Positions 49,753 to 64,000 of a stretch of DNA of 64,000 nucleotides are shown here, one piece after another. This DNA comes from Macrostomum lignano (Eukaryota), in the NCBI GenBank assembly GCA_002269645.1, contig NIVC01000274.1, forward strand, positions 116,353 through 180,352, written 5' to 3'. Numbering within the stretch: position 1 is the stretch's first letter; the number at the start of each line of letters is the position of its first letter. The notes beneath the pieces were generated by a model. It was not told the DNA's origin and searched no databases. It saw only the letters and a list, made by a program, of their open reading frames with translations. A program made the position numbers and the translations under genes.

Positions 49753-49792
49753 AGTAGAAGGCATGAGGGGGCTTTTGGGACAAAATTTTTCA

Positions 49793-50030
49793 CGTCCTCC
49801 ATAATCCCATTAAATCCATCCATATTATCCCTGACAGAATCAGAAAAAAAGGGGGGTCGCACTCGCTCCGAAAACGTCCTCCATAATCCACCTAAATCCA
49901 TCCATATTATCCCCGACAGAATCAGAAAAAAGGGGGGTCGCACTCGCTCACAAAACATCCTCCATAATCCTATTAAATCCATCCATATTATCCCTGACAG
50001 AATCAGAGCATTATCCCTGACAGAATCAGA
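49793..50030. repeat. About 82-bp subterminal tandem repeats (about 2.7 copies) in the putative Polinton TIR
   Basis: C(G/A)TCCTCCATAATCC recurs at about 49793, 49875 and 49956. Confidence 0.8.
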
Positions 50031-50360
50031 GCATAACAGTAGGACACCTGTTATGCTCACTGACACTGACATAATCCACTGACATCCACCCATAGCATCT
50101 TCGAAACAATCAGAAAACAATCTGCATTCTTCTCCCCACATTCAATCCGCAACGTGCTACCACATCCCTAAAACTTTAAATCCCCTAACCCAGGGTCCTT
50201 ACCCATTGAAAAAAAAAATAATTTTATTATTCATTAGTAAGAATTATATATTTATTAACGGTTGCACAGCTGATAGGATATGTATTAACTATTACAAGAG
50301 TATCAAAAATGGTAGAAAAAACAGACACTATGTAGGATCTGCGTTAGAATTCTTCAACAA

Positions 50361-50690
50361 CATACAGAGCCAGCCTAGCGTTCCTTTGAGCCAGCAGCTA
50401 GATTCTCTAACGCGTTAGAATTTTCTATGTGAAAATTTGGTGTGCCCAAGCTTATCATGCGGGAAGCTTTTCACATAGAAAATTCTAACGGCGTTAGAAA
50501 ATTTCTACCCCCCTCTATTTAACCATACAGAGCCAGCCTAGCGTTCCTTTGAGCCAGCAGCTAGATTCTCTAACGCGTTAGAATTTTCTATGTGAAAATT
50601 TGGTGTGCCCAAGCTTATCATGCGGGAAACTTTTCACATAGAAATTTCTAACAGCGTTAGAATTTAAAACCCACCGACTGAGTTGCACAC
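50361..50690. repeat. 163-bp tandem duplication, each copy able to form a hairpin with a stem of about 30 bp
   Basis: CATACAGAGCCAGCC at 50361 and 50524; arms TCTAACGCGTTAGAATTTTCTATGTGAAAA and TTTTCACATAGAAAATTCTAACGGCGTTAGA. Confidence 0.9.
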
Positions 50691-50807
50691 AGTACTGAGA
50701 AAATTGCTACCCTCCTCTACTTAACCAATCGGCTGTCTCCAGTTGTTGAATCTTCTCTTTGAAATTCTAACGCGTTAGAAAAATTCTAAATGAACTGAAT
50801 TTAAAAA

Positions 50808-51485
50808 TTACACAACTTTCCACGCAGGATCACTGGCCAAAATTTCTTCTAGAAACTTCATCTTAGAGTTTAGTTTCCTAATTGGCATTGACACCTGTCT
50901 CAAGCCTGGGTAGGTAACAGACAGTTTGTACAGACGAATGTACAAATAGCCAGTTGATTCCTGGATGTTTACATTTTTACACAAATGGGCGAACCGCACT
51001 TTAACATCTTGTCCAAAGTTCTCGGTGCGATAAGTTTTTAGCAGCCGCCCAACTTCGAGAATCCAATGTAGACCTCCAATTTGAGTCTTCTTGTATTTTG
51101 CTAGAGCCGCCTTCACCCTAGTGATGATGTTCTGCTCGCCAGATGGAAGCTGGTGATCAACAGCGTCCATCAGCTGATCAGCTAGTGTTACGCGGGATGC
51201 GTACAACTTCTCCCTGAATATCTGCAGATCCGCCATCTTCTTCTGCAGAGCCGCCGCCTTCTTCTCTTCGCTACTCACATTTTGCGCTTCATTCGCTGCG
51301 GCGATATCATCAGGGGCCATGGCGAAAAACTCGATTGGTAGGTCGCCAGTTTCTAGACCGAAAAAGGTGGTTAGTTCCTCTCTTCTTCTTGCTTGTAGAT
51401 GTGACGGAATATCCTGTAAAACTCTTTGTAGCATGGCACAAAGGCCTTGCTTATCTGTCAAATGAAGATTCCACTCGACTTCCAT
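50808..51485 (-). CDS. Polinton accessory protein, 225 aa, function unknown
   Basis: Clean ORF with its own ATG and A-rich leader. The C-terminal YLYIRLYKLSVTYPGL...KFLEEIL recalls a recurring invertebrate Polinton hypothetical protein (recollection, unverified). Confidence 0.65.
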   Translation of the reverse strand: MEVEWNLHLTDKQGLCAMLQRVLQDIPSHLQARRREELTTFFGLETGDLPIEFFAMAPDDIAAANEAQNVSSEEKKAAALQKKMADLQIFREKLYASRVTLADQLMDAVDHQLPSGEQNIITRVKAALAKYKKTQIGGLHWILEVGRLLKTYRTENFGQDVKVRFAHLCKNVNIQESTGYLYIRLYKLSVTYPGLRQVSMPIRKLNSKMKFLEEILASDPAWKVV

Positions 51486-52286
51486 TTTCTAAATCTTCTT
51501 GTCTTCTAATCTTCTAGTTTGGCGGACAATTTCTTAGATCACTTTCAGCGTGCTTAAGTTCCTGCAGTCGTCGTTTCTCAGTCGCAGTTGATGGCATATG
51601 CGGGGAGAATCAACCCGAGTGTTTCTGCATTTGCTTAAATACAGCTATACAGCTAGAAAATTCCAGAAAATTCTTAGACTGTACAATCTTGGAGTCAAGC
51701 AGGGAAAAAATAATCGATATAGCTCAGTGAACGATAGAACATGAGGCGTGTGAATGTGAGGGTGAGCGATCGATTCCCTCCACCCGCTTGAAGTCCCCAT
51801 ACATTTCCTTGGTTGATTGGGTTTGTCAAAGCGGAAAGGAAAGCACGCGTGGAACTTGTACATTCGCAAAATCGATTAGAGGGCTGCGCTCCCTCAGCAA
51901 ATAGCAGTTACCCCACCCCCCTTCTGCTTCTACTTTTCAAAATGCAGCTGTTGCGCTTGGTTAGGGCTGAGAATAATAGTTAACCCTTCCCGACTCAAGC
52001 GCCTCTCTCTACCCCGCCCCATATCTTCATACTGTAGAGACCAACTAGGCGGGCCACATTCCGAGGCCAAATCGGCGGGCCGAGGCCAACTCGGCGGGCC
52101 AACTGGCCTCGCAATTTGGCCAATAATCAATATCAATCAAGGAGGGAATCTCAACGGTGGCGGCGAAGCGGTTGACTTTTTATTTTCTGCTCTTAGCTCT
52201 CTGGAGAATGAGAATCTCTCTTGTGCGCAACTCTTTAGGGAATAAAAAACTTACTCAAATCCACACTTGCTCATGCCCTTCCCGAT

Positions 52287-61612: not shown

Positions 61613-61628
61613 CTTTTTAAATAGAAAT

Positions 61629-62842
61629 TTATTTTTTGTTAAACCGTGAAAGCAAAAGTTCTCTTGCTCTTTTATCGATATATTTTCTCTCAAGCATTTT
61701 GTCCAGGATGTTGACAAATTCTTTTCTATTCTCGTCTTTCATTCCGGTCTTTGCCGCTCCTAGAAGAACAGCTAACCGCTTGTAGAATTCAGGCATGCCT
61801 TTTCCGGAAGAGCTTGGAGGTGATTCGAATGATTGGTCAGAGGAGGAACTGTCATGTGGCGCTTGTCTTTGTTGAGGTGTGAATACTCTGTCATTGATTC
61901 GCTTCATTCGTTCTGGGTAGAGCCGCTCTAATTGTCGCCATTCATCTGGGCGCTGGTTTCTGTACTGGGAAATCTCATTTGGCCCTGCTTTTTCAAGCGC
62001 TTCTAGTACTTGTTCGGGTGTGATTTGTTGCTGTGGCGGTGGAGGTTGTTGTGGTTGTGGTTGTGTTGTGGTTGCTGCTGTTGTGGTTGTTGTAGTTGTT
62101 GTTTTGGTTGCTGCTGTTGTGGTTGCTGCTGTTGTGGCTGTGGTTGTTGTGGTTGTTGTCTTATGACCTCTTCTTGATCCGGCAAACCAAACCATTGTTT
62201 AAAGTATTTGTATTTTCTAAACCTGTTCAAGTCAATCCTGTTTTCATGTAAAACTTTCAAAACACCGTTGTTCTTGAGAATGTCTATGTCCCTCTCTAAA
62301 GCGAAGGTAACCAGATCTCTATAATTCTTTAATTGCTTCTCGGATATTTTTTCCTGATTTTTAGTCATGTAGTCGAGTAAACTTTGAGTGAAGGGGATTC
62401 GTTTAGTTTCTGCGCCTTTATTGATTGAAATAGTTTCCTTCGTCACTTCAATGTTGTAATCCGCCGGTTCCCCGGTGATATTTTTTCGCCAGGCGCTAAT
62501 TCCAAATATATATTTTCCATCATCCGTTACGGGGCCAAAAAAGTTATCCGTCACTTTCATCTGCACTGGTTGTCCTGGTTGCTGAGCCTGTGGTTGTCCT
62601 GGTGAAGATGGGATTTTACCCAATGTGTTTTGCAAGTGGCTCTCTTGAATATCATCAACTGCTTCCTTCACAGTGTCGAGGTTTTTCTTCGCTTCTGTGT
62701 ATCCGGGTTTGTGAAATTCGGTGGCTGCTTGGACAAACTCATTGTGGGATTGTTGCTCCTTATTTATTAGCCCGGTAACTCGTTTCTCTGCTTGTGCTAG
62801 CTTCTCCAATTCAGATATCTGCTGTGTACTTTTTCGCTTCAT
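61629..62842 (-). CDS. Q/P-rich Polinton structural protein, about 404 aa after repairing one missing base near 62065
   Basis: ORFs 62003-62842 and 61629-62195 fuse by restoring one CAA CCA unit; the C-terminal RLAVLLGAAKTG...EFVNILDKMLERKYI motif is typical of Polinton core-type ORFs (recollection). Confidence 0.7.
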
Positions 62843-62891
62843 TTTTTATTTTATTTTATTTTTAGTCTAAATGTTAGTCTAGTCTAATTAG

Positions 62892-63536
62892 TCTAAATCG
62901 AACAGAGGAATTTGGTCGGGGGCCAATCATACATCGATGGAGATTAAGCTAACTAGCGTGGAGCTGTACTTAGAAATTATTGAGCCCAAGACTGCACTCA
63001 AAGCTGAATACTTGAAGGCGATTGAGAAAGACATTGATATTGCTTATACAGCTTATATGTGCAGAGATGAGCGGAATGACGCAAGACACAATATTTGCAT
63101 TAAAGAAGGCTCCTGTAGCAATCCAAGGTACATTATTGTCACTATGAGGAATACAACTAATGTAGGTAGATATCTACATGGAAACATTCGATCGATTCAG
63201 CATGAGATCAGTGACAATTTATACCCTGCATTGCCACAAAATGGAAATTTCTCGGAGAACAAGATTAGTAAGTTTTACAATGAACTGTCGGACTTGGCTG
63301 TCAAAGAGAATAACGGTATTGTTTTGACAACCTTGCAGTATAAAAAACTATATCCAATATTTGGTGTTGATGTGACTGCTAGACAAATGCCTACAGACAA
63401 TAGCCCTGTTAACATTGTGACTAATATCGAGCGGAAAGAATTTGGTGCCGCAACGGCTGTTGATCTGTTTATTATCTATGCATTTGAGAGGAAGATCAAG
63501 GTCAATATGATCAATAACTCGTCTAGTAAAGTTTGA
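62892..63536 (+). pseudogene. Double jelly-roll major capsid protein, C-terminal half only (about 214 codons)
   Basis: IKLTSVELYLEIIEP, NPRYIIVTM, LYPALP, KKLYPIFGVDVT and a position directly upstream of penton fit Polinton MCP. The frame is closed by TAG at 62889-62891 with no room for the N-terminal half. Confidence 0.7.
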
Positions 63537-63558
63537 ACAATTTTTTTTCAATAAAAAA

Positions 63559-64000
63559 ATGGAAGCCATAGCGAAAGACTGAACAACATTGTTTCACACT
63601 CTAAGGAGAGCATTCCAATCACTGTAGCGGGTCGCATTACTGAGTCAAACGGAATCTTCATTCAAAAATTGGAGCAACCACTTCGTTTGGATCCCGAGGC
63701 GAATTACCACGTCTATCTCAATGATTTCACTGGGTGGTCAAATGTTCCCAATGTGACAGCGGAAAATAACAAGTTTTATTACAAATGGAAGCGTACTACA
63801 ACAGAGGTTGTGATATTTCCTGTCAGCACACAGAGCGTGGATACTTATAATTACTTCTTGGAGAACGTCTTCACTAAACGAAAGCATTTTGAGATACCGG
63901 ATGAAAGCAAACCAGAAAATAAACTGTTCCCTGTTAGATTAACTTATGATCTAACTGTCATGAGAGTTGTCTTGCAAGTTCATAAGGACGCAGAGGTAGA
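63559..64000 (+). CDS. Minor capsid protein (penton), 5' part; one base missing near 63575; runs off the window
   Basis: After repair: MEAIAKRLNNIVSH...LEQPLRLDPEANYHVYLNDFTGWSNVPNVTAENNKFYY, the Polinton penton pattern; open to 64000. Not in the ORF track. Confidence 0.8.

Follow-up and report, generated by a model that had tools for sequence, protein, structure and literature searches.

A broken Polinton copy in Macrostomum lignano, its young mosaic family and a candidate stress-inducible protein of the terminal slot

What is the element that begins at position 49753 of a 64,000-nucleotide stretch of the flatworm Macrostomum lignano (contig NIVC01000274.1, positions 116,353 to 180,352; the whole stretch is called the window below), and what does the gene next to its left end do? 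The element is almost certainly a Polinton. We favour, with a probability of about 0.7, the joint reading that it is a broken copy from a young family of mosaic copies, and that the protein encoded in its terminal slot, the region between the left terminal repeat and the phospholipase A2 (PLA2) gene, is likely a stress-inducible regulator. In the window this slot protein is ORF225.

The element and its family

The left end of the element lies exactly at 49753, where AGTAG follows the 6-bp target GGGCAC inside a 26-bp satellite. Pfam profiles match the PLA2 (PF08398, E=8e-13), the integrase (rve, 2e-08), a pX-like protein (Adeno_PX, 4e-07) and the packaging ATPase (Pox_A32, 1e-06). For two genes, natural open reading frames (ORFs) of other copies gave the matches: a 659-aa frame of the protein-primed DNA polymerase (pPolB, here PolB) matches PF03175 (5e-17) and the EndoVII profile PF02945 (2e-04), and a 428-aa frame of the major capsid protein (MCP) matches PF21738. 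The MCP model, with a predicted local distance difference test (pLDDT) score of 55, resembles the double-jelly-roll capsids of SGIV, PBCV-1, Sputnik and mavirus at E of about 2e-10. The adenain (C5) protease stays below the cut-off (E=0.002), and its His and Asp motifs are present. PolB has 6,529 relatives, the closest among those listed being 36-47% identical; those listed with a name are proteins of molluscs, cnidarians, a sponge and a snake. The hairpin protein has five unnamed relatives at 45-49% identity. PLA2 and pX are encoded by two different ORFs on opposite strands, the integrase lying between them, and are not fused as PLA2X. No gasdermin match was seen among the window ORFs scanned, with distant homology still possible.

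The original prediction had described an adintovirus-like, capsid-encoding Polinton in a probable flatworm genome. The first part is borne out by terminal repeats, target duplications and Pfam matches to core modules, and the second by proteins near-identical to the family's slot proteins that carry the name Macrostomum lignano in UniRef/NCBI. All 13 ORFs that it had placed are found in the window sequence at their positions, in their order and on their strands. Of its hallmark modules, the integrase, pPolB, adenain (below cut-off), ATPase and partial MCP were recovered; the penton candidate has no Pfam, PHROG, NCBIfam or PDB sequence match and is assigned by its fitting position and size. The label "core" for a 126-aa ORF found no support in profile searches, which gave no significant match. 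The AT-rich codon usage was seen again, with G+C at third codon positions of 0.34-0.51 in eight element ORFs versus 0.66-0.90 in three host exons.

Hundreds of near-identical copies make up a large, young family. Exact terminal 20-mers number 485 genome-wide versus 0 for the reversed control, corresponding to about 240 element-equivalents, nested and short ones included; the copy census that the original prediction had called for thus yields hundreds of recombining copies. The termini read AGTAG…CTACT, and among 14 copies with both ends the 6-bp target duplications are perfect in nine, have one mismatch in four and two in one. At least 117 integrase matches were scored, at 91-100% identity, and at least 98 MCP matches at 98% identity or more, 95 of these 98 being stop-free; both counts are lower bounds. 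The copies retrieved from the integrase match list number 39, among them the 14 with both ends.

Some copies are nested in other copies of the family (L015-L016 on contig C3589; L021-L022 on C1684). Terminal motifs facing each other at distances of 640-870 bp (C32:1150965-1151833, C124:22982-23697, C289:58541-59180) are probably short non-autonomous derivatives. The 81/82-bp units of the terminal repeat vary widely in number between elements, with dozens of copies in L009-L010 (C3826).

The features of the window copy are listed below, with C3110 denoting a second assembled copy of the locus. The vOTU-like label of PolB, which we presume from Cys/His motifs in its translations, also follows in part the covered sections of PMC11161782.

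49520-49752, no strand: host 26-bp satellite; its last six bases, 49747-49752 (GGGCAC), are the target-site duplication
49753-50213, plus: left terminal inverted repeat, about 461 bp, beginning AGTAG; positions 1-461 match between left and right at 97% in C3110
49792-50007: 81/82-bp tandem units within the left terminal inverted repeat
50361-50790, no strand: palindrome array 3' of ORF225 with a 163-bp tandem pair; TCTAACGCGTTAGA at 50406, 50569 and 50766
50808-51485, minus: ORF225, slot-family protein; coiled coil and predicted ParB/DUF3102-like helix-turn-helix (HTH) domain, predicted homodimer
51656-51673, no strand: perfect four-unit heat-shock element GAAnnTTCnnGAAnnTTC, 171-188 bp upstream of the ORF225 start
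52287-52766, minus: parvovirus-type PLA2 (YCGP and WHD motifs; PF08398), separate from pX
52816-53853, plus: RVE integrase, 345 aa, open frame, D-D-E motifs (PF00665)
53870-54316, plus: pX-like core/membrane protein, 148 aa (PF05829)
54437-58263, plus: protein-primed PolB in 10 frame pieces, with EndoVII/HNH insert and vOTU-like Cys/His motifs
58345-58733, plus: adenain/Ulp1-type maturation protease, matching PF00770 and PF02902 below cut-off; the frame is open up to 58680
58734-59387, minus: 217-aa hydrophobic-hairpin protein by hydropathy, weakly SLATT/2TM-like (NF033634, E=0.03)
59496-60218, minus: 240-aa coiled-coil protein; the allele-lineage switch lies in or near this gene
60235-61035, minus: A32/FtsK-type packaging ATPase, minor "b" allele (PF04665)
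61232-61612, minus: 126-aa basic protein without significant match
61629-62842, minus: Q-rich protein, two frames here, about 400 aa in other copies
62872-62899, no strand: scar of the deletion that took the 5' half of the MCP gene, with short repeated filler; also in C3110
62900-63536, plus: C-terminal half of the double-jelly-roll major capsid gene, minor "b" allele
63558-64000, plus: probable penton, by position only, truncated at the contig end; other copies have 285-287 aa

Damage and mosaicism among the copies

Could the window copy move by itself? The contig stops at 64000, about 1.2 kb short of the right end as seen in C3110. This duplicate locus is 99.4% identical to the window locus, flanks and MCP deletion included, and is either a haplotype or a recent chromosome duplicate of it. 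Its element is 15,334 bp long, has 461-bp terminal repeats and is followed after the right end by the target duplication GGGCAC. From the MCP gene of the window copy about 630 bp are missing, a segment kept in 24 other copies. This deletion looks real, because the segment is absent from both assembled copies and short repeated filler lies at the junction. As a full MCP cannot be made from it, the window copy would be mobile only with help from other copies. In addition, its PolB is in 10 frame pieces and its Q-rich gene in two. The term "near-complete" in the original prediction goes too far for this copy, which is broken by its PolB frames, the MCP deletion and the contig end.

The PolB frame breaks are probably for the most part assembly errors. 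The window and C3110 differ by 27 indels and 19 substitutions, the private gap columns of PolB equal or exceed its private substitutions, and in a comparison with short-read contigs, which mix all copies, 8 of the 12 listed length differences fall inside PolB, a pattern that read-consensus error would produce. Homopolymers were considered as the cause of the indels and explain them in part, with 8 of 20 one-base indels between window and C3110 in runs of 3 or more. Alternatively, the family may be dead or purely transposon-like, with PolB truly broken and the mosaics arising from ectopic gene conversion or mis-assembly. An unbroken PolB frame was found in none of the 31 full-size regions, the longest frames being 274-758 codons, which tells against our reading and against assuming that the family is autonomous at present. 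The low share of one-base indels in runs and the lack of any IMG/VR relative by MCP alignment, PolB or one slot subfamily point in the same direction. However, the indel excess between near-identical duplicates, the private gaps of PolB and the short-read length differences given above all speak against truly broken genes, as do the stop-free MCP matches. We therefore consider a dead family unlikely.

The copies of the family are mosaics. PolB, the protease and the hairpin gene are uniform across copies (pairwise identity at least 94%), and three blocks, namely the ATPase with the adjacent 126-aa "core" gene, the Q-rich gene, and the MCP with the penton, fall into two classes each, with 70-85% DNA identity between classes. 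For the ATPase and capsid alleles, the nonsynonymous divergence (dN) between classes is 0.07-0.12 and the synonymous divergence (dS) ranges from 1.3 to saturation; this combination of low dN with high dS indicates old allele lineages on which purifying selection acts. Neighbouring genes of the same block are fully linked (ATPase-core, MCP-penton). ATPase and MCP classes occur in all four combinations (13/4/3/3, Fisher p=0.32, with the duplicate locus left out of the count). The window copy is of the minor class throughout, with the switch near 59,200-60,000. Recombination among copies, the simplest reading of the mosaics, is probably real; on the other side, some mosaics could be assembly chimeras. 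Allele mixing of this kind would be virus-like recombination inside one animal genome.

The terminal slot and its heat-shock element

What is carried in the terminal slot? Good integrase matches led to 98 integrase positions, from which 87 complete ends were sampled; all type counts refer to these ends. The slot holds one of 14 family types at 52 ends, weakly family-like genes at 10, a RING-finger gene at one and no gene at 24, and slot genes are found in both orientations. The family types have a median identity of 14% in their shared domain, and leave-one-out profiles recover 13 of the 14 above all 200 shuffles. The remaining one, T255, failed this test (3 of 200 shuffles were as good) and was dropped from alignment A2, so that the family is counted as having at least 13 highly divergent versions. 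The slot-family profile finds 408 cluster representatives elsewhere, and no Pfam family matches more than one of 118 slot-family members. Most of the 25 extra slot-family loci lie beside Polinton ends or genes.

ORF225 matches nothing significantly in Pfam, PHROGs, NCBIfam or PDB sequences. Its structural model (pLDDT 88) consists of a long coiled coil and a helical domain, the latter matching Spo0J (Z 6.3, root-mean-square deviation 3.4, 88 aligned residues), Raf1 (6.0), ParB (5.2) and KorB (4.7). DUF3102 is a further structural lead for ORF225, and an Atlas lead also for a relative. The Z-scores are all under 8, so these matches are only suggestive. As a homodimer ORF225 scores 0.71, and the best control scores 0.00; repeated runs agree on at least 86% of the contacts, and the pLDDT is at least 75. 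In calibration, 21 of 30 solved pairs passed the dimer mark, and none of 23 single chains did. ORF225 is thus predicted to be a ParB/DUF3102-like HTH homodimer. Repeated palindromes lie 3' of most slot genes, and the palindrome TCTAACGCGTTAGA has three copies 3' of ORF225 versus 0.12 expected. When a slot gene is mirrored to the other end of the element, its palindrome array moves with it.

Upstream of ORF225 stands the perfect heat-shock element GAAnnTTCnnGAAnnTTC, scored against what we take to be the consensus of such elements. It is the single match in the window, with 0.01 expected. All 7 sampled ORF225-type ends carry the element, as do 9 of 18 further ORF225 loci; the loci that lack it are mainly decayed. 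Across the slot types, 7 of 14 have an upstream heat-shock element, versus a shuffle mean of 0.12, and the host flank has one three-unit match in 112,477 bp. Among the types with the element are T225, T207, T274, T259, T303 and T167. Treating these seven types as independent cases was rejected, since promoter comparison shows a common module in six of them; this module is attached to very different slot proteins.

A similar arrangement is found outside Macrostomum. In 11 metagenome loci with a distant slot subfamily (profile match probability 98.9 to the slot family), all five three-unit matches precede the family gene by 82-125 bp; the scan covered 39,529 bp, and two loci had no upstream DNA and four no perfect match. 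The five matches share a single promoter family that has no relation to the Macrostomum promoters. With two Macrostomum promoters and this outside family, which comes from Polinton-like metagenome contigs, three independent promoter lineages are counted. Protease, PLA2 or SLATT-like genes are found near the slot-family gene in loci L159, L162, L167 and L169, and two of the heat-shock-bearing loci carry protease or PLA2 genes. Judged from such sequence patterns, the heat-shock promoter is reasonably likely to be functional.

Several observations about the slot weigh on the other side. Seven of the 14 slot types have no perfect heat-shock element, it is kept in only one of five T239 slots, and six of the seven types that bear it depend on the one common module, the ORF225 promoter being separate. 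The 24 ends without a slot gene show that the gene is dispensable in cis. A Foldseek search with the ORF225 model gave no match at E of 0.001 or better in PDB and BFVD, and the structural Z-scores may reflect a common helical arrangement. When the dimer mark was applied to eukaryotic proteins, 17 of 29 pairs reached it, but only one of the seven without an older solved relative. Finally, the ORF225 palindrome also occurs 3' of T245, and T259 and T272 have one palindrome in common. These common palindromes do not agree with a scheme of one palindrome per protein type.

Two other explanations of the slot should be considered. First, slot proteins may act on the host, by binding chromatin or by damping silencing or stress responses, with their diversity reflecting an arms race and the palindromes being unrelated. 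The extreme divergence of the slot proteins, the RING-finger gene that can occupy the slot and the lack of one-to-one pairing between palindromes and proteins are consistent with this, and so is the diversity of proteins usual in the terminal accessory regions of Mavericks (PMC8097293, in the part covered). In contrast, the predicted symmetric dimer, with its ParB-like domain, would fit palindromic sites, and the arrays travel with the gene when mirrored. We regard a host-directed role as rather unlikely; that the slot protein regulates the element rather than the host can itself be proposed only tentatively. Second, the slot cassettes could be independent small selfish elements, each a gene with its binding-site array, hitchhiking on Polinton ends. 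Their two orientations, variable presence, own promoter and own repeat arrays would fit, and loci L084, L155 and L156 have no nearby terminal repeat. However, neither terminal repeats specific to the cassettes nor a catalytic motif were seen, the extra loci mostly adjoin Polinton ends or genes, and relatives in other hosts again adjoin protease, PLA2 or SLATT-like genes. Hitchhiking cassettes are therefore distinctly improbable.

Under the favoured reading, that of a stress-inducible slot regulator in a mosaic Polinton family, events may be pictured as follows. The Polinton integrase inserts the element and the protein-primed polymerase copies the excised linear DNA from its termini; the ATPase, protease, MCP and penton would package this DNA. 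Under stress, host HSF1 would turn on the slot gene, whose dimeric product would bind the palindromes near the terminus and, once bound, could control how elements of its own type are transcribed or replicated. In this way, the slot gene behind its heat-shock element may serve the Polinton as a sensor of host stress. Alleles and slot cassettes would be shuffled by recombination and by end-to-end copying while the linear DNA replicates. The underlying cycle, integrase-mediated integration followed by protein-primed copying of linear element DNA, is presumed here, and both of its steps are part of Polinton biology in the covered parts of PMC8502044 and PMC11161782.

In its widest form, the model would give animal Polintons a prophage-style switch, with an HSF1-driven dimeric HTH protein gating stress reactivation through its own palindromes, many specificities resembling phage immunity groups, and a freely recombining provirus population. 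We consider this full version doubtful. If true, the 408 clusters of the slot family would make up a widespread family without a name, and the proviruses of the worm would recombine freely as a population. The slot family also offers a new marker for Polinton ends.

Some further observations were made around the slot. The ORF225 cassette is mirrored at a right end, and penton fragments lie beside left-end termini (L143; L157; L082); the mirrored cassette and the misplaced fragments are signs of end-to-end copying. At L062:5413-6042 the place of an HTH-family gene is taken by one for a 210-aa protein whose C-terminal part is a C3HC4 RING finger. A small ORF, about 80 aa long, lies just within the terminal repeat (for example L072:5650-5892) at 59 of the 87 left ends; it has no family match and is missing from all seven ORF225-type ends. 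One slot type is in two ORFs (L113:3532-4403; L158:2806-3670), joined by UniRef model P0131, which points to an intron although the element otherwise has none. Beside a family copy (L158:2800-8800; L083) lies another Polinton-like stretch, separate and decayed, with several slot-family genes, an Ulp1/adenain-like protease and a cysteine-rich ORF.

Elsewhere in the window, positions 47006-48744 hold a Tc1/mariner-type DNA transposon whose inverted ends are 23 bp long and whose 355-aa transposase frame is open (DDE_3 and HTH matches); this transposon is also in C3110. Among satellite arrays there are what we take to be host genes, myosin light chain-like at 8524-9138 (minus) and universal stress protein-like at 10668-11132 (plus). 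A multi-exon SPX/EXS gene at about 16495-27384 (plus) is presumably XPR1-like, going by its translation.

Comparison with known systems

Published systems are compared here through the covered parts of each source. The original prediction had suggested that the lineage might be undescribed, and the literature searched, with Repbase, subscription journals and some supplements outside its scope, gave no description of a Macrostomum Polinton family, of the slot family or of Polinton heat-shock elements. Orthopolintovirales insertions are reported in Rhabditophora (bioRxiv 10.1101/2025.04.19.649669); the main text does not contain Macrostomum, and the supplements may list its genome. Variable accessory regions and module swapping are already known in Polintons. 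Overall, the Macrostomum element has the defining features of Polintons and most of those of adintoviruses.

The adintoviruses (PMC8502044) have in common with the Macrostomum family the integrase, pPolB, adenain, FtsK-type ATPase, double-jelly-roll MCP, PLA2, pX and terminal inverted repeats, and module swapping between their lineages has been proposed. They differ in having a fused PLA2X, where the Macrostomum family has separate PLA2 and pX genes. Adintovirus PLA2 is tied to Alpha modules, whereas the Macrostomum PolB matches PF03175 weakly (62 bits); this weak score and the EndoVII insert only suggest a PolB of the Beta/pPolB2 group. In the parts of that paper covered, no terminal HTH family or heat-shock element is described, unlike in the Macrostomum family, no flatworm is among the maps of Suppl. 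Fig. S2, and no flatworm term is in the supplement.

Vertebrate Mavericks (PMC8097293) likewise have 6-bp target duplications, AGT-type ends and accessory regions beside the core. They are 12.7-24.6 kb long with terminal inverted repeats of 46-1,447 bp, and the Macrostomum element is in line with both. Their gene order is different, and they end in (AGT)2, whereas the Macrostomum elements end in AGTAG. They have a median of 8 copies, high-copy cases being defective, in contrast to the Macrostomum element-equivalents of about 240 with many open capsid genes.

With the nematode pPolB2 Polintons (PMC10748475), the family has in common an HNH/EndoVII-type nuclease insert in pPolB and gene replacement by recombination. 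The closest listed relatives of the Macrostomum PolB are 36-47% identical, the named ones being from mollusc, cnidarian, sponge and snake. The same paper calls the HNH insert unique to oomycete and terrestrial-nematode pPolB2. By hand count, PF02945, which may or may not be that insert, occurs in about 49 of 120 listed PolB relatives, including Mytilus and Oculina proteins.

For ORF225, the best structural matches, though weak, are the HTH domains of ParB/Spo0J/KorB and DUF3102, over residues 114-221. The likeness to ParB/Spo0J/KorB consists of a dimer plus nearby palindromes; with no ParB/CTPase domain seen and 6-14% identity, it would be a functional analogy only. Finally, the mosaic Polisuviricotina (bioRxiv 10.64898/2026.10.13.758929) also have re-associating replication and morphogenesis modules and SLATT-like membrane genes. 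There, modules are reassorted between lineages, whereas in Macrostomum this takes place among copies in one animal genome.

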